Source: a virus | DNA length: 17,531 nucleotides | Reading direction: 5' to 3' (one strand) | UHGV virus genome: UHGV-0065625 | Shown: positions 1,937 through 17,531 of the stretch, one piece after another | Numbering within the stretch: position 1 is the stretch's first letter | Layout of the letters: each line of letters begins with the position of its first letter | Program-made: the position numbers and the translations under genes | The notes under the pieces: generated by a model | Databases searched by the model: none | The model's input: only the letters and a program-made list of their open reading frames with translations | Told to the model about the DNA's origin: nothing

Positions 1937-2481
1937 TGGCCAGACGCAGCACAATAGAAAAGCTGCCGGAAGACGTGCGCCGCTGGCTTGAACGGGCGCT
2001 GACTGAATCCGGCTTCAGCGGGTATAACGAGCTGGAGTCCCTGCTGCGTGAGCGGGGATACGTCATCAGCAAATCCGCTATCCATCGCTATGGACAGAAG
2101 ATTGAGCGCCGCTATGGTGCTATCCGTGCGGCGACAGAAGCGGCCCGCATGCTGACCGAAGGCGCAGCAGACGATCAGGATGCGCGTTCGGAGGCTGTGA
2201 TAGCCCTTATTCAGACCGAGCTGTTCGAGAGTATTGTCCAGTTGCAGGAGGCGGAAGAAGGCGAAGTCGATCCTAAAGAACGCGTGGCCCTGCTGTCGAA
2301 GGTGGCGAAGAATGTGGCTACGCTGTCACGCGCGTCCGTCAACCTCAAAAAGTTCCAGTCTGAAGTGCGGGCCAGAGCGCAGCAGGCAGCCAGCAACGCA
2401 GAGAAAATTGCCCGTAAGGGCGGACTGTCAAGCGACGCAGTACAGGCGCTTCGTCGCGAGATTCTGGGGATTGCCACATGA
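1936..2481 (+). CDS. Terminase small subunit-like DNA-binding protein (Mu gp27-like position)
   Basis: 181-codon ORF immediately upstream of, and overlapping, the large terminase gene (ATGA). Basic N-terminal region (RRSTIEKLPEDVRRWLERAL) is consistent with a DNA-recognition subunit. Assignment by position and composition. Confidence 0.55.
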   Translation: MARRSTIEKLPEDVRRWLERALTESGFSGYNELESLLRERGYVISKSAIHRYGQKIERRYGAIRAATEAARMLTEGAADDQDARSEAVIALIQTELFESIVQLQEAEEGEVDPKERVALLSKVAKNVATLSRASVNLKKFQSEVRARAQQAASNAEKIARKGGLSSDAVQALRREILGIAT

Positions 2482-4073
2482 CAAAATCATCCGGAGTGAT
2501 TTTAAACGCCGCTGGCGGCGGCCCCGAAGGGATGAGTCCCATGGACGGGAGGAATAACCTTGCTCCCGTTTTGCCTGATACCTCGGCGCTGGATGCCCCT
2601 CCCGTTCTGTTGCCTTACCAGCAGCGCTGGGTGGCAGACACCTCTCCGCTTAAGGTGATAGAAAAGAGCCGTCGTACCGGTATTACATGGGCTGAGGCAT
2701 CCGATAACGTACTGACCGCCGCCTCTTCTGCGCCAGCAGGCGGGATGAATGTGTATTACATCGCTTATAACCAGGACATGACCGTCGAATACATTCAGGC
2801 GTGTGCGATGTGGGCACGGGCATTCAACTATGCGGCCAGTGAAATTGAAGAAGGATTCTGGGAAGAGGACGACGACGACAAACACATCAGGACTTACACC
2901 ATCAAATTTCCTGACTCCGGCTTTCGTATTGTTGCGCTCTCCAGCCGCCCGTCTAACCTGCGTGGCCGTCAGGGTATTATTGTTATCGACGAAGCGGCGT
3001 TCCATGAGCAACTGGACGAACTGCTGAAAGCGGCGCTGGCGATGCTTATCTGGGGGGGGAAGGTACACGTTATCTCCACCCATAACGGTGACGACAATCC
3101 GTTCAATACGCTTATCGGGGATATCCGTGCCGGACGTCAGGGAGGCAGCATACATCGCATCACTTTCCGGGAAGCCGTATCTGAGGGGCTGTTCCGGCGC
3201 GTCTGTCTGCGCACCGGGAAGGAATGGTCGGAGGCCTCCGAGCAGGCCTGGATGGCATCGGTGTACAAATTCTACGGTGCCGGCGCATCCGAAGAGCTTG
3301 ACTGTATTCCGGCCAACGGTGGCGGTGCCTGGCTGTCCCGTGCCCTGATAGAGTCCCGCATGTCCGCTGATACGCCGGTATTGCGTCTGACCTGCAAGGA
3401 AGGTTATGAACTGCTGTCTGATGAGGTTCGCTTCCGCGAGACGCAGGACTGGCTTGATGAGTATCTGAAACCATTGCTGGAGGCACTCCCCACTGATGCC
3501 CGCTCTTTCCTGGGGCGCGACTTTGGCCGTAGCGGTGATTTGTCGGTGGACTATCCCCTGCTGCAGGAGAAGAACCTGGTACGACGCGTGCCATTCGTAC
3601 TGGAGCTGCGTAACGTGCCGTTCAGACAGCAGGAGCAAATCACCTGGTATCTGATGGATGGCCTGCCCGGTCTGCTGGGTGCAGCGTTTGATGCCCGTGG
3701 TAATGGTGCCTATCTGGCTGAATACGCCATGCAGCGCTACGGCTCCAGCCGGATTCAGCAGGTGATGCCAACCGAAGGCTGGTACAGGGAGCATATGCCT
3801 CCGGTCAAAGCTGCACTGGAAGACGGTAACCTGGTGGACTTACCAAAGGATGAAGACACACTGGATGACCTGCGGGCCGTTCAGGTGGTGAACGGTGTCC
3901 CCCGCGTACCGGAGCAACGCTCAAAAGCAAAGGCTGACGGTGGTAAACGCCACGGGGATTCAGCCATCGCACTGGCGCTGGCGTATTTCGCCAGCCGTGA
4001 AATTAACAAAGGGCCGGTGAAGGCAAGCTCACGCCGTCGTCGTCAGGCGGCCCGTATGCTGGAGGGATTCTGA
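2478..4073 (+). CDS. Terminase large subunit
   Basis: 531 codons. Walker-B-like hydrophobic run ending in DE (GIIVIDEAAF) and an upstream P-loop-like segment (KSRRTGIT); C-terminal nuclease-sized domain. Sits between the small-terminase-like gene and the portal gene. Confidence 0.8.
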   Translation: MTKSSGVILNAAGGGPEGMSPMDGRNNLAPVLPDTSALDAPPVLLPYQQRWVADTSPLKVIEKSRRTGITWAEASDNVLTAASSAPAGGMNVYYIAYNQDMTVEYIQACAMWARAFNYAASEIEEGFWEEDDDDKHIRTYTIKFPDSGFRIVALSSRPSNLRGRQGIIVIDEAAFHEQLDELLKAALAMLIWGGKVHVISTHNGDDNPFNTLIGDIRAGRQGGSIHRITFREAVSEGLFRRVCLRTGKEWSEASEQAWMASVYKFYGAGASEELDCIPANGGGAWLSRALIESRMSADTPVLRLTCKEGYELLSDEVRFRETQDWLDEYLKPLLEALPTDARSFLGRDFGRSGDLSVDYPLLQEKNLVRRVPFVLELRNVPFRQQEQITWYLMDGLPGLLGAAFDARGNGAYLAEYAMQRYGSSRIQQVMPTEGWYREHMPPVKAALEDGNLVDLPKDEDTLDDLRAVQVVNGVPRVPEQRSKAKADGGKRHGDSAIALALAYFASREINKGPVKASSRRRRQAARMLEGF

Positions 4074-8173: not shown

Positions 8174-8602
8174 ATGTCTGATTACTTAAAAGGTAAACGT
8201 GTCGTTGATCCGGTACTGACCAGTATCGCCCGAGGCTATAAAAATGCCGCATTCATTGGCGAACGTATTTTCCCCGTCGTGCTGACGGACAAGGAAGGCG
8301 TGCGTGTGCCGACCTTCGGGAAAACCGCCTTTGTGGAATATGACACTGAGCGTGCCGTCGGGGCGGACAGCAATGTTCTGGTCCGTGAGAAAACCGGCAC
8401 GCTTGATCTGGTGCTGGGTGAGCACGATCTGGCTGCGCCGGTGGACTATCGCGAGCAGGCGGAGTCCATGTTTAACGAGGAGAGCAAGGCCATCCGTCGC
8501 GCCACGAATGGCGTGAATCTGCGCCGTGAACTTATCGCCGCCCGTCTGGCTCAGGATGAAAAGGTCTACCGTACGCGAGAAGCTGCCTCAGCTGCAGGTT
8601 GA
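8174..8602 (+). pseudogene. Putative major head subunit, N-terminal 142 codons only (frame break or deletion)
   Basis: Strongest ribosome-binding site in the window (AAGGAG, 5-nt spacing to ATG 8174), directly after the scaffold gene where the major capsid gene is expected. The ORF is far too short for a capsid protein and overlaps the next ORF in another frame. Confidence 0.4.
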
Positions 8603-12076: not shown

Positions 12077-12583
12077 GTGGCCAGTGAATTTTCAGTCGGC
12101 GTCATTATTGGCGGCATTGTCGGGAGCAGCTTCCGCTCAGCCGTCAGTGGCACCCGACGCGCCCTTGATTCCCTTGGTGATACCTCCCGCCGTCTGCAGG
12201 AACGCCAGAATGCCTTAACCCGGGCAACAGAACGTTATGGTCAACTGGGTTCTTCCCGGATGCAGCATCTCAACAGCGAGTTGCTGCGGGTAAGCCGCAC
12301 CATGGAGCAAATTGAACGTCAGCAGCGCCGTCTGTCAGCAGTATCAGCCACCGGTGATGCGTTGAAGGCTAACCGCCTGGCGCTCTATGGTCAGGGTGCA
12401 GAAACCTATGCTATTGGCAGAACGCTGGGCGCACCGGTCATGGCCTCGGTTAAACAATATGCCTCGTTTGAATCACAGTTGCGGGATATCAGTGTCACAG
12501 GAGACCTGGATGCAAAACAGGAACGTGCAATTGGCCTGGCTATCAGACAGGCCTCGCTGAAGGTTACGGTACATTCTCAATAG
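12077..12583 (+). pseudogene. Tail tape-measure protein, N-terminal fragment (168 codons)
   Basis: N-terminus MASEFSVGVIIGGIVGSSFRSAVSG... and the ...YASFESQLRDISVTGDLD... segment resemble tape-measure N-termini. Far too short for a functional ruler protein; terminates 8-10 codons after the apparent junction with hub-like sequence. Confidence 0.55.
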
Positions 12584-13437
12584 ACGAGATCGAAGTGAGT
12601 TCGCCCGCGTCCGTTGTCGCTATCCGTGGGGTGGCCACCTCGGTTAACAGTGCTCTGCGGACTAAATCCAGCCGTGGTTTTGAGAACACCACGCTGGCAG
12701 CTGTTGCGGGTCGGATTGCCAGAAAGCACCGGCTGAAACTGGTGGGCAGCATTGAGTCCATCAGAATCGACCGGGTGACCCAGTATGCTGAAACCGACGT
12801 GGGTTTTCTGCGCCGGCTGGCCAGCGAGTATGGTTATGCAGTGAAAGTGGTCAGTGACCAGTTGATTTTTTCTCATCTGGCCACATTGCGCAGTCAGGAG
12901 CCGGTCAGGCAGTTAAAACCGCAGGATGTGGCCCACTTTTCCCTGCGTGACACCATCAACCGGGTCTATAAATCTGCAAAGGTAAAACACCAGAAAAGCA
13001 GCAGTAAAAAACTGATCGTCTACGAAGCTGATGGTGGTACCCGTGAAAGCGACAAAAAGCTCAAAGGCGGTAAGGTTACCAGCGCTGACTCACTTAAAGT
13101 TAACAGCCGCGTCAGCGACCCGGACAGTGCTCGGATTAAAGCGGATTCAGCACTGGCCAGACATAACGAATACCAGCAGAACGGCTCCCTGACGCTGACG
13201 GGAACGCCTCAACTGACAGCAGGCAACAAAATTGAACTGGTGGGCTTTGGACAATTATCCGGTCCATGGCTGATAATCACTGCCCGCCATGCGTTTGAGC
13301 GTAACAGCGGCTACACCACAGAGCTGGAAGTGGCACGGGGGCCAGTCACAAGAGGGAAAAAACAAAAAACTCAGAAACTCACGGTTTATCACCCGGATGG
13401 CAGTACATCGACGGTGATTAAGGAGAAGAAAAAATGA
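12472..13437 (+). pseudogene. Baseplate hub / late control D-like protein (P2 gpD, Mu gp44-like), 5'-truncated
   Basis: Frame open from 12472 with no start until GTG 12595. Recognisable hub-family similarity begins at ...EGYGTFSIDEIEVS... (about 12559) and continues (TTLAAVAGRIARKHRL, FLRRLASEYGYAVKV). The N-terminal ~75 residues expected for this family are missing. Confidence 0.55.
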
Positions 13438-13946
13438 CTGGTGTCACCCGCCAGGTCGGTACGGTCAGTGCCGTTGATGCCGACAGGGTTCAGGCCCGCG
13501 TTCGTCTGCCTGAATGCGATAATCTGCGCACAAACTGGCTTAACGTGCTGCAGCGCAATACCCAGGATAACAAGGATTACTGGCTCCCTGACGTGGGGGA
13601 GCAGGTTGAGGTGCTGCTCGATGCCAACGGCGAGGATGGTGTTATTCTGGGCGCGGTGTACTCAGACGTCGATAAACCGCCGTTCGGTGATAAAAACGTC
13701 CGGGGCACGAAGTACGCTGATGGCGCGGAGTTCAGTTATGACCGCGCGACCCATACGCTGACGGTCAAAGGAGGTATCGAGCATGTGGTGATCGAGGTTG
13801 CAGTGGGTATTAGTCTGAAAGGGAAAACCATTGATTTGACAGCTGACACTATCATGGTGAACGGCAATCTTGAAATCAAAGGGAGTACCCATGCGACTGG
13901 TAACATATTTGCAGATGGACAGAATTCCAATCATCACTCTCACTAA
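13434..13946 (+). CDS. Baseplate spike / assembly protein V-like
   Basis: 170-codon ORF overlapping the hub stop (ATGA), in the position of the spike gene. C-terminus ends in the His-rich NSNHHSH. Confidence 0.7.
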   Translation: MTGVTRQVGTVSAVDADRVQARVRLPECDNLRTNWLNVLQRNTQDNKDYWLPDVGEQVEVLLDANGEDGVILGAVYSDVDKPPFGDKNVRGTKYADGAEFSYDRATHTLTVKGGIEHVVIEVAVGISLKGKTIDLTADTIMVNGNLEIKGSTHATGNIFADGQNSNHHSH

Positions 13947-13985
13947 TTTTTCAAGTATGTGACTCCATTTCCTCTCCCGCGGATA

Positions 13986-13994
13986 TGATAGAAT
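13986..13994 (+). promoter_or_regulatory. Extended -10 promoter element TGaTAGAAT upstream of the island ORF
   Basis: TG-n-TAGAAT at 13986-13994 followed by an AT-rich tract; no good -35. A GGCGGGGA ribosome-binding site lies 5-6 nt before ATG 14028. Confidence 0.3.
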
Positions 13995-14027
13995 TTTTTA
14001 ATTAACACTAATTTGGCGGGGACTTAA

Positions 14028-14903
14028 ATGCGGTTATCAAGATCCTTATGTAAAGTAGTTGGCGATGTCATTGCTAACTCAGGCTCTCATGCAGCTTTAG
14101 ATACGTTATTTCTTACTTCGGGAGCACCAGGAAACCCTCCGGCAGGATCTCATAGTACAAAATGGAAAGACTGGTTATTTCTTGCAGGGCAAGATCCAGA
14201 TACAGATAGTCTGGCAGTTCTGGGCGGAGTAATTGAGGAGTTTATGGATTTACCTCCAAAAGAAGGTACTCCCGAATATGCAGAATGGAAGGAAAAACGA
14301 GACAGAATTGAAGCTGTGTTACAAGAGAATGGACTTAGATATTATCGTTTTGGTCGAGTGTTGCCTGAAGGCCACATCCCGTCACACAATATGGATTACC
14401 CAGAGACCATAATTACTTATCAACAGCCAGTAATGCCAGAAAAAGTTGAGAACTTACTGGAAAGGCTGGTCAAAGGCTTACAGCGAGCAATGCATCCACT
14501 TACTCATAGGCGAAAAGGAAGCCAGTCATTATCTTTTAGCAATGAATATGACGTGCAAGACCTTCTCCATGCATTGCTCAGACCATGGGTTCAGGACATC
14601 CGCCCAGAAGAGTTTACTCCAAGTTATGCTGGTTCAAGTACTCGAATGGATTTTTTGTTACCTGCGCATAAATTAGTACTGGAAACCAAAATTGTTCGTG
14701 ATCGTTCTCATGCAAAGAAAATCGGCGATGAACTTATTATCGATATAGAGCATTATCGTCGGCACTCTGATTGCAAAAATCTCTGGTGTGTCATCTACGA
14801 TCCGAACCAGCTTATTACTAATTCTGAGGGGCTGAAATCTGATCTTGAGGGGAAGAGAGTTTCTAAAGACGGAGAACTTATCGTCAAGGTTTTCGTAATT
14901 TAA
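14028..14903 (+). CDS. Cargo protein with C-terminal PD-(D/E)xK nuclease-like domain and N-terminal domain of unknown function; candidate defence/abortive-infection effector
   Basis: 291 codons. Motif read from translation: acidic helix NEYDVQDLLHAL (E173/D175), then RMD208FLLP, then LVLE219-T-K221 with 10-residue D-to-E spacing. No Walker motif in the N-terminal ~165 residues. Nuclease assignment is motif-based inference. Confidence 0.6.
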   Translation: MRLSRSLCKVVGDVIANSGSHAALDTLFLTSGAPGNPPAGSHSTKWKDWLFLAGQDPDTDSLAVLGGVIEEFMDLPPKEGTPEYAEWKEKRDRIEAVLQENGLRYYRFGRVLPEGHIPSHNMDYPETIITYQQPVMPEKVENLLERLVKGLQRAMHPLTHRRKGSQSLSFSNEYDVQDLLHALLRPWVQDIRPEEFTPSYAGSSTRMDFLLPAHKLVLETKIVRDRSHAKKIGDELIIDIEHYRRHSDCKNLWCVIYDPNQLITNSEGLKSDLEGKRVSKDGELIVKVFVI

Positions 14904-14957
14904 CAAACGTATCAATAACTCCTTTTTAAATCCCTTTAATATCGTTCTTTTCTTACT

Positions 14958-14973
14958 GGGGCAATACTGCCCC
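14958..14973 (+). other. GC-rich hairpin (GGGGCA-atac-TGCCCC) ending 1 nt before the W start codon
   Basis: Exact 6-bp inverted repeat with 4-nt loop. It occupies the position where a Shine-Dalgarno sequence for W would be expected; no U-tract follows. Confidence 0.35.
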
Positions 14974-14974
14974 C

Positions 14975-15322
14975 ATGAAAACGACCTCAGTATTCTGGCA
15001 ACCGGCTCTGCAGGCTCCCGGCGAAATCGTCCGGGGGCTGGATGATATCCAGCAGTCCATCCAGATCATCCTGCGGACTCCCCGCGGCAGCGACCCGCAT
15101 CGCCCAGAGTTCGGCAGCAATCTGCACCTTTATATCGACTGGCCTGTCGACCGGGCCATTCCGCATGTGGTTCGCGAATCCGTCGATGCCATCAGGCGCT
15201 GGGAACCCCGCTGCCAGCTTATGTCGGTTAAACCCGCCGTCGACGGCGAACATCTTACGCTCCGGGTGAGCTGGAAAGGCTCAGACGGACAACCCCGTAC
15301 TCAGGAACTGCTATGGCGCTGA
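14975..15322 (+). CDS. Baseplate wedge protein W (GPW/gp25 lysozyme-like family)
   Basis: 115 codons containing ...IILRTPRGSDPHRPEFGSNL..., matching the family pattern as I recall it. Followed by an overlapping J-like gene. Confidence 0.75.
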   Translation: MKTTSVFWQPALQAPGEIVRGLDDIQQSIQIILRTPRGSDPHRPEFGSNLHLYIDWPVDRAIPHVVRESVDAIRRWEPRCQLMSVKPAVDGEHLTLRVSWKGSDGQPRTQELLWR

Positions 15323-16989: not shown

Positions 16990-17531
16990 ATGGCAAATCT
17001 ACCTGAAACCCCACAGTGGGAAGACGGCATCTACCAGATTGAGGTCTCTGACCCCGTTCTGGGCGGGCCTGACGGAATTTCTAACCGTCAGGGTAAACAA
17101 CTGGCCAGCCGCACGCTGTACCTGAAGCAACAGGTTGAAAAAGGCGGGGCTGACCTTGCGAAACACATCGCGGCAGCAGACCCGCATGCCCAGTATGCAC
17201 CGAAAGCCAGTCCGGCATTCACCGGCACACCAACAGCACCTACACCTGCAAATGGCGATAACAGCAAAAAGCTGGCGACGACGGAGTTTGTGGCCAAAGC
17301 ACTTGCGGCGCTTGCAGGCAGCGCCCCTGAGACACTGGATACGCTTAAAGAGCTGGCTGACGCTCTCGGTAATGATCCAAACTTTGCGACTACGGTACTG
17401 AACAAGCTGGCGGAAAAGCTGGCTAAAGACCAGAACGGCGCAGATATTCCTGATCCTGCGCTGTTTGTCAAAAACCTTGGTTTGGGGGAAGGCTCTGCAC
17501 TGCCCGTTGGTGTGCCCGTTCCGTGGCCCTC
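16990..17531 (+). CDS. Tail fibre protein, 5' partial (runs off the window end)
   Basis: Frame open from ATG 16990 to the window end. Contains the conserved fibre segment ...ASPAFTGTPTAPTPA...TTEFVAKALAALAGSAPETLDTLKELADALGNDPNFATTV..., closely matching the equivalent stretch of P2 H-type fibres as I recall it. Confidence 0.75.
   Translation, partial: MANLPETPQWEDGIYQIEVSDPVLGGPDGISNRQGKQLASRTLYLKQQVEKGGADLAKHIAAADPHAQYAPKASPAFTGTPTAPTPANGDNSKKLATTEFVAKALAALAGSAPETLDTLKELADALGNDPNFATTVLNKLAEKLAKDQNGADIPDPALFVKNLGLGEGSALPVGVPVPWP

Follow-up and report, generated by a model that had tools for sequence, protein, structure and literature searches.

A candidate single-gene defence nuclease carried as a moron in a Mu-like Escherichia coli prophage

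The gene and its insertion site

We analyzed the virus genome UHGV-0065625 (17,531 nucleotides; the whole stretch is referred to below as the window) and focused on a gene for a protein of 291 residues, which is composed of an N-terminal helical domain, a flexible linker and a C-terminal PD-(D/E)xK nuclease domain (Table 1). With moderate confidence, we predict that this protein is an AbiJ-style single-chain defence nuclease in which the N-terminal domain gates a DNase. The open reading frame (ORF), as given in the initial annotation (plus strand, ATG start), agrees exactly with the program-made ORF list. The same annotation had described the gene as a prophage moron, and this description was borne out by three observations. 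First, an identical coding sequence, named "PD-(D/E)XK nuclease domain-containing protein", is found in E. coli JNEC-KY202, where it also lies between the genes for baseplate assembly protein V (gpV) and the GPW/gp25 baseplate protein (gpW). The surrounding prophage is Mu-like in gene content (DUF935 portal, MuF-like protein, sheath, tube, tape measure, D, V, W, J and I). Second, in the phages PhiKM (Bcepmuvirus) and KP12 the gap between V and W is only about 55 bp and the site is empty; the alignment assigns the extra DNA of the window to the cassette listed in Table 1. The right boundary of this cassette is approximate, as the sequence TTTTT(C/A)AA is present at both ends. Third, the flanking genes were detected in 636 of 5,426 complete E. 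coli genomes, and only 18 of these contain the insert. From a sample taken across the ranking of the 636 genomes, we estimate that roughly 600 of the related prophages have the short empty junction (about 97% without the gene). Because the insert is restricted to 18 of 636 genomes and the junction is short and empty nearly everywhere else, the cassette is a lineage-specific moron. For the same reason, the idea that the V-W junction is a general hotspot for cargo genes was rejected. The composition profile sets the gene and its short flanks apart as well, with a guanine-plus-cytosine (GC) content of 0.41-0.43 compared to approximately 0.57 in the surrounding DNA.

Table 1. Positions in the window of the nuclease gene, its domains, the candidate expression signals and the flanking genes
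Feature	Position	Strand	Description and source
Nuclease ORF	14028..14903	+	ATG start, 291 residues plus stop; two-domain PD-(D/E)xK protein, RefSeq WP_001371051.1 (ORF list)
N-terminal domain, residues 1-113	14028..14366	+	Five helices and a beta-hairpin; isoelectric point (pI) 5.3, mildly acidic; AlphaFold2 predicted local distance difference test (pLDDT) about 92-96
Hypervariable disordered linker, residues 114-139	14367..14444	+	pLDDT below 50 for residues 116-133
PD-(D/E)xK nuclease domain, residues 140-291	14445..14900	+	Pfam PF18742 REase_DpnII-MboI
Catalytic core codons	14649..14690	+	D208 14649-14651, E219 14682-14684, K221 14688-14690
Candidate extended -10 promoter element TGATAGAAT	13986..13994	+	Motif search; no good -35 hexamer
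Shine-Dalgarno-like stretch GGCGGGGA	14015..14022	+	Purine-rich and G-rich, 5 nt before the ATG; sequence reading
Inserted cassette (moron)	13947..14925	+	About 975 bp, 41-43% GC; follows the gpV stop codon and precedes the conserved V-W intergenic sequence
gpV, left flank	13434..13946	+	Context only; RefSeq annotation of the identical locus
gpW, right flank	14975..15322	+	Context only; RefSeq annotation of the identical locus

A C-terminal nuclease domain

Profile searches assigned the C-terminal half to Pfam family PF18742, which matched residues 143-286 with an E-value of 4e-47 and 160 bits (curated cut-off 27). It was the sole Pfam family reported, and the Pfam DpnII family gave no match even at E<=10. 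Among the PADLOC models, PDLC02411 (Aga_Helical-REase) matched residues 136-274 with E=1.8e-30, with coverage limited to positions 224-362 of the 378 in the profile. Both motifs named in the initial annotation, RMDFLLP and LVLETK, are legible directly in the sequence. In an alignment of 83 homologues extending down to approximately 30% identity, D175, D190, R192, E194, E195, D208, E219, K221, D239, Y243 and D258 are invariant.

The alignment of 83 homologues was also the basis of the AlphaFold2 model. An earlier model, built on a shallow alignment, had reached a mean pLDDT of 72.6, and a Foldseek search of the PDB with it returned nothing significant. The rebuilt model has a mean pLDDT of 87.4 and contains two well-defined domains joined by a disordered linker. 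In the fold search, the C-terminal domain appeared as a restriction-endonuclease-like alpha/beta core with a match to Type II restriction endonucleases (REases); nothing significant was found among viral structures (BFVD). According to the model, the nuclease domain begins near residue 140 and includes two extra helices. Sequence and model together show a nuclease fold with intact catalytic residues in the C-terminal half. Profile searches, the invariance of D208, E219 and K221, and structure prediction combined with fold search all confirm that the initial annotation was correct in reading a PD-(D/E)xK nuclease from its motifs.

The only sequence match in the PDB was EcbAgaN (23wq, E=2e-5), whose residues D298, E309 and K311 align with D208, E219 and K221. 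EcbAgaN is a dimeric protein whose two domains are connected by an unstructured linker (Song et al. 2023, PMC10620215). As a Mn2+-dependent DNase without sequence specificity, it degrades single- and double-stranded DNA to short products and also cuts methylated DNA; this activity is abolished by the D298A or E309A/K311A substitutions (PMC10620215). By analogy, the predicted substrate of the C-terminal domain studied here is DNA. The PF18742 nuclease domain is found in some 2,000-3,000 clusters at 50% identity, where it follows differing N-termini, including AbiJ_NTD3 and DUF2321.

An N-terminal domain shared with Abi_C proteins

In the initial annotation, no motif was recognized in the N-terminal 165 or so residues. 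In part, this still holds, as the N-terminal domain has no sequence match in Pfam, NCBIfam or the PDB, and the AbiJ_NTD models of Pfam do not match it either. However, the module is shorter than assumed (residues 1-113, followed by the linker of residues 114-139), and it does have homologues. Among 39 family members from many phyla, the mean pairwise identity is 59% for the N-terminal domain, 21% for the linker and 70% for the C-terminal domain.

A tblastn search of phage genomes detected the N-terminal domain in gp40 of the P2-like Escherichia phage ESSI2_ev040 (E=2e-5). This protein of 272 residues is annotated as "abortive infection family protein" and encoded directly downstream of the integrase gene. 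Pairwise BLASTP gave 32% identity over residues 2-111 (E=2e-12), and a comparison of the two N-domain alignments with hhalign gave a probability of 99.5% (E=1.4e-22, 107 columns). Comparison at the sequence level thus shows that the domain is homologous to that of Abi_C/AbiJ-type proteins. The C-terminus of gp40 belongs to Pfam family Abi_C (E=4e-21); in PADLOC, the AbiJ model recognizes it through its own C-terminal portion (E=3e-16). Using full-length gp40 as query, we found a sister family of 1,579 clusters that occurs in many bacterial groups and is common on plasmids; the gp40 N-terminal domain alone retrieved nine short fragments, owing to the word index. Matches to the N-terminal domain only in the representative library were considered as new fusions and rejected, since they are frameshifted fragments.

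Judged by these alignments, the same N-terminal domain carries two alternative effectors, either the PF18742 nuclease or Abi_C/HEPN. Since the gp40 family has Abi_C and PF18742 also follows AbiJ_NTD3, all four pairings of the two N-terminal domains and the two effectors exist. By description, the domain resembles the published AbiJ-NTD5, which comprises about 100-115 residues, is mostly helical, has an E. coli prototype and in some cases carries an extra N-terminal Zn ribbon; a distant member of our family (P0126) has a CxxC...CxxC extension. AbiJ-NTD1-5 are swapped among effectors and have been proposed to bind viral components and to restrain the C-terminal toxin (Anantharaman et al. 2013, PMC3710099). 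By analogy, the N-terminal domain is probably a sensor or an autoinhibitor.

These data bear on an alternative explanation, namely that the protein is a solitary restriction endonuclease. In this case, the N-terminal domain would read a modified base (Type IV-like) or an unmethylated site shielded by an orphan methylase of the host, for example Dam, and the C-terminal domain would cut foreign DNA without abortive infection. We regard such an enzyme as unlikely. Proteins with about 70% identity occur in Pseudomonas aeruginosa, Burkholderiales, Myxococcota, Planctomycetota and others. These hosts are not known to have Dam, and a constitutive enzyme specific for GATC would therefore be lethal in these hosts. 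Moreover, the N-terminal domain is acidic, with no detectable DNA-binding fold, and its fusion to the HEPN-type (RNase) Abi_C in the sister family argues against a reader of DNA sequence. The missing match to the Pfam DpnII family and the non-specific cutting of EcbAgaN, the closest characterized relative, which accepts methylated DNA, also speak against a restriction enzyme.

Expression signals

A generic consensus scan did not call a sigma-70 promoter upstream of the nuclease ORF, nor did it find a terminator on either side. The motif search, however, identified a candidate extended -10 element (Table 1). Elements of the form TGnTAnAAT (TGATAGAAT, TGATATAAT and TGGTATAAT) recur at an equivalent distance from the ATG in front of homologues in Salmonella, an E. 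coli island and Enterobacter. Apart from the promoter and Shine-Dalgarno elements, the upstream DNA of these three loci is unrelated. G-rich or GGAGG-like stretches occupy the Shine-Dalgarno position at the homologous loci, and the downstream DNA is unrelated directly past the stop codon. Because the -10 element is kept in otherwise diverged upstream DNA and the downstream DNA is unrelated, the mobile unit appears to consist of promoter plus ORF. The gene is likely transcribed in the lysogen from its own candidate promoter. The description of the gene as self-promoted in the initial annotation is thus plausible only: the consensus scan speaks against it, and the recurrence of the extended -10 element upstream of homologues speaks for it.

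The location of the gene suggests a second explanation, a nuclease that serves the phage. Expressed from the late tail operon, it would degrade the DNA of the host or of competitors, or take part in DNA processing while the Mu-like phage grows lytically. In agreement with this, the ORF points in the same direction as the late genes, V, the ORF and W are not separated by any terminator-like site, and the upstream promoter is only a partial match to the consensus. Nevertheless, we think such a role quite improbable. The phage cycle does not need the gene, as about 97% of the related prophages lack it and have an intact V-W junction, and near-identical proteins are encoded outside phages, on chromosomal islands, on plasmids and beside housekeeping genes. 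The extended -10 element accompanies the gene in a conserved manner. Mu is a transposing phage that replicates within host DNA, and for such a phage indiscriminate DNA degradation would be self-defeating.

Distribution and genomic context

The nuclease protein family comprises 3,375 homologous clusters. Full-length relatives with 50-70% identity were found in Beta-, Gamma-, Alpha- and Deltaproteobacteria, Myxococcota, Acidobacteriota, Planctomycetota, Verrucomicrobiota-related metagenome-assembled genomes, Spirochaetes and one cyanobacterium; one short contig with a relative is binned as Nanoarchaeota, which may be contamination. Compared with the Salmonella homologue (89% protein identity), synonymous divergence (dS) is approximately 1 and the ratio of nonsynonymous to synonymous substitution rates (dN/dS) is 0.06 (0.08 for the N-terminal domain, 0.16 for the linker and 0.03 for the C-terminal domain). 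All enterobacterial copies have a GC content of 40-45%. Taken together, sequence comparison indicates that the gene is old and mobile and that both domains are under strong purifying selection.

An all-against-all comparison of the ORFs within 6 kb at 39 loci revealed no neighbour family common to more than three loci. A DNA methylase was found once among 133 immediately adjacent genes (38 loci). The window contains no methyltransferase, and the neighbours of the nuclease gene are gpV and gpW, with no prokaryotic Argonaute beside it. A recurrent downstream gene for 230-263 residues in enterobacteria was considered as a partner and rejected, since the encoded proteins are mutually unrelated. 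As far as gene neighbourhoods show, there is no conserved partner gene, and the nuclease gene forms a self-contained unit.

The carriers are diverse. The gene was found in a P1-like element beside darA/ddrB, on a contig beside a gpA-type terminase gene, in small integrase/AlpA islands of E. coli and Dickeya, on two plasmids and in a Salmonella island with TIR and DUF4365-TPR genes. In Permianibacter, a Shedu gene lies directly upstream, and in Enterobacter a gene for a YobI-type NTPase adjoins. Further adjacent genes matched TIR/bSEFIR, Tmn, DUF2290, AbiU, SAVED-HNH and several PADLOC candidate systems.

Two further neighbourhoods were observed. In Pseudomonas aeruginosa (L002/L004, 5516-9304), the homologue belongs to a block with genes for a protein of 234 residues and a trypsin-like protease of 483 residues and an ORF of 104 residues. 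This block is present at two different chromosomal sites, and the protease pair may be a separate uncharacterized defence system. The second case is the contig from IMG/VR with the gpA-type terminase gene (L072, 3956-5269). Here, a protein of 438 residues with a 'Development and cell death' (DCD) domain is encoded next to a homologue with 58% identity. The DCD domain family is better known from plants.

Many entries for the family at NCBI bear the name 'transposase'. No transposase domain of Pfam or NCBIfam, no inverted repeats and no conserved flanks were found, and the label appears, from sequence, to be a propagated annotation error. These observations are also relevant to a third explanation, a selfish element. 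The gene could be a free-standing homing endonuclease gene that targets the empty V-W junction, or could encode an addiction-type toxin that is kept only because its loss is penalized. We consider both forms very unlikely. The homologues have neither common flanks nor a common target, and each of the 39 loci has different neighbours. Neither a transposase or homing endonuclease domain nor an antitoxin or immunity gene is present. Strong purifying selection across phyla is unlike the fast decay of homing endonuclease genes. As for addiction, the gene is readily lost to insertion sequence (IS) elements in carriers that are still alive.

Proposed mode of action

The prediction of an AbiJ-style defence nuclease leads to the following model. 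Transcription in the lysogen would start at the extended -10 promoter of the gene. The conserved N-terminal helical domain, tethered by the flexible linker, would keep the protein inactive until a cue arising from infection by another phage or mobile element engages it. This engagement would free the C-terminal PD-(D/E)xK domain or permit its dimerization, and the freed domain would then degrade DNA through the metal site formed by D208 and E219-x-K221. By analogy with EcbAgaN, cutting is probably independent of sequence. As an outcome, the invader would be lost, with or without cell death.

The initial annotation had proposed a candidate single-gene defence system. In favour of this, the nuclease family is used by the BPAN/bAgaN system and by some Detocs variants, the N-terminal domain is common to AbiJ-type Abi_C proteins, no conserved partner or methyltransferase was found, and the gene is carried on mobile elements, often beside defence genes. 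Defence itself is a prediction: judged from sequence and analogy, it is the most likely role, and the support is indirect.

Several points weigh against this prediction. The gene is oriented in sense within the late tail operon and is bounded by a terminator neither to the left nor to the right, so that most of its expression could fall into the late phase of the lytic cycle. The N-terminal domain is acidic, so that direct sensing of DNA is not obvious, and with a mean identity of 59% across phyla it is highly conserved, unlike sensors caught in an arms race with proteins of phages; its regulation may therefore follow another logic. It can be argued from the same conservation that the domain responds to a generic cue rather than to a particular phage protein. 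The defence-island signal is real but moderate, and many neighbours are ordinary metabolic or housekeeping genes. The family is rare in viral contigs, with four loci in IMG/VR. Furthermore, IS elements interrupt the gene in 7 of the 18 E. coli carriers; it is therefore dispensable and perhaps costly. The insertions correspond to window positions ~14175, ~14463 and ~14749. IS2 was found in B7A and in the group 503025/503440/504211/503829/TW10573, which also contains IS100, and ISCro1 (IS66 family) in ATCC 43896; at least two independent inactivations have thus occurred. The cause may be that the nuclease lowers fitness, or simply that the IS elements prefer AT-rich targets. Finally, literature searches, including PF18742, AgaN and defence hotspots of Mu-like phages, returned no experimental or dedicated computational description of the family, and neither PADLOC v2 nor NCBIfam contains a model specific to it.

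A broader hypothesis can be put forward only tentatively. The nuclease family and the Abi_C sister family together account for about 5,000 clusters at 90% identity, from Proteobacteria to Planctomycetota, Cyanobacteria and Acidobacteriota. They might form one unrecognized and very widespread defence clan, in which the single, unusually conserved N-terminal domain of 113 residues senses a universal infection cue, as opposed to a fast-evolving phage protein, and switches on either a DNase or a HEPN RNase in the same chain; we regard this as somewhat doubtful.

If the predicted defence role is correct, a compact immune nuclease of 291 residues encoded by a single gene would be added to the defence repertoire. 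The two families would also provide a natural pair with the same sensor and two effectors (DNase versus HEPN) for studying sensing and toxin gating by AbiJ-type N-terminal domains. The conservation of the N-terminal domain across phyla suggests a generic trigger that could be found by means of escape mutants. The PF18742 effector of the Argonaute (BPAN) and Detocs systems would also exist in a free-standing, self-regulated form, which bears on the exchange of effectors between immune systems.

Other features of the window

A perfect hairpin, GGGGCA-ATAC-TGCCCC, is located at 14960-14975 and ends one base short of the gpW start codon. As it is conserved in phages with an empty V-W junction, it is part of the phage rather than of the insert. 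It may regulate the translation of gpW or be a site of RNA processing.

Compared with the JNEC-KY202 prophage, to which it is otherwise 99.9-100% identical, the window is short by 1,390 bp at 8574 and by 3,341 bp at 12565-12566. The first missing block comprises the 3' part of the major capsid gene, DUF2190, a gp436-family gene and the start of Gp37, and the second most of the tape measure gene, a tail protein gene, X and the 5' part of gpD. At 12565-12566, the N-terminal part of the tape measure protein and the C-terminal part of gpD are left (ORFs 12077-12583 and 12595-13437); the nuclease ORF is unaffected and intact. Neither junction was found among the 5,426 complete E. coli genomes. There are two explanations, a defective source prophage or a spliced window. 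The last 61 bases (17471-17531) align with 92-97% identity to three sites of the reference prophage around the tail-fibre region that adjoins a recombinase gene, and both orientations occur. These matches are consistent with the crossover sites of an invertible tail-fibre segment.

Comparison with known systems

The building blocks of the protein and its general architecture are already known, and the family itself is one for which we found no description. Its C-terminus falls into the Pfam domain clade named after DpnII/MboI, and the fold matches Type II REases. Unlike DpnII/MboI, the gene has no linked methyltransferase and the protein does not match Pfam DpnII. A similar layout is known from Shedu (SduA), a single-gene defence system in which the C-terminal PD-(D/E)xK nuclease stays constant while the N-terminal regulatory domains vary. 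The nuclease domain studied here, however, belongs to PF18742 and has no DUF4263/SduA_C match in Pfam or PADLOC, and the N-terminal domains are unrelated. A weak Foldseek match to the Shedu nuclease came only from the first, poor model (pLDDT 72.6). The PD-T4, PD-T7 and PD-lambda systems (Vassallo et al. 2022) were considered as well; apart from the Aga REase model, no PADLOC model matched.

With Detocs, the protein shares the effector. PF18742 is listed as an alternative effector domain of this system (Rousset et al. 2023, bioRxiv 10.1101/2023.01.24.525353, Fig. S8), and in the REase variants it acts as an immune effector. Detocs, however, is a phosphorelay of three genes with the effector behind a receiver domain, whereas here there is no receiver domain and no neighbouring DtcA or DtcB.

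EcbAgaN is the collateral effector of the long-B Argonaute (BPAN) abortive-infection system (Song et al. 2023, PMC10620215). Like bAgaN, our protein has a homologous PD-(D/E)xK C-terminal domain with the same D...E-x-K spacing, and the order of N-terminal domain, unstructured linker and REase domain is the same. In contrast to bAgaN, it is about 100 residues shorter, and its N-terminal domain is unrelated, with no match to a helical N-terminal domain of the bAgaN type. Unlike in BPAN, no Argonaute gene adjoins here or at the 39 homologous loci.

In architecture, the protein resembles AbiJ of Lactococcus and the AbiJ-NTD fusions, in which a small N-terminal domain and a C-terminal nuclease toxin form a single polypeptide. 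Its N-terminal domain is homologous to that of Abi_C proteins of about 272 residues that match the PADLOC AbiJ model. It differs from AbiJ in that the C-terminus is a PF18742 REase fold with no Abi_C match, while HEPN/Abi_C defines AbiJ, a protein whose mechanism is still not known (PMC13064643). The initial annotation had matched the protein to no named system, and PADLOC indeed holds no family-specific model, but the architectural class can now be named: an AbiJ-NTD-like sensor joined to a swappable nuclease.

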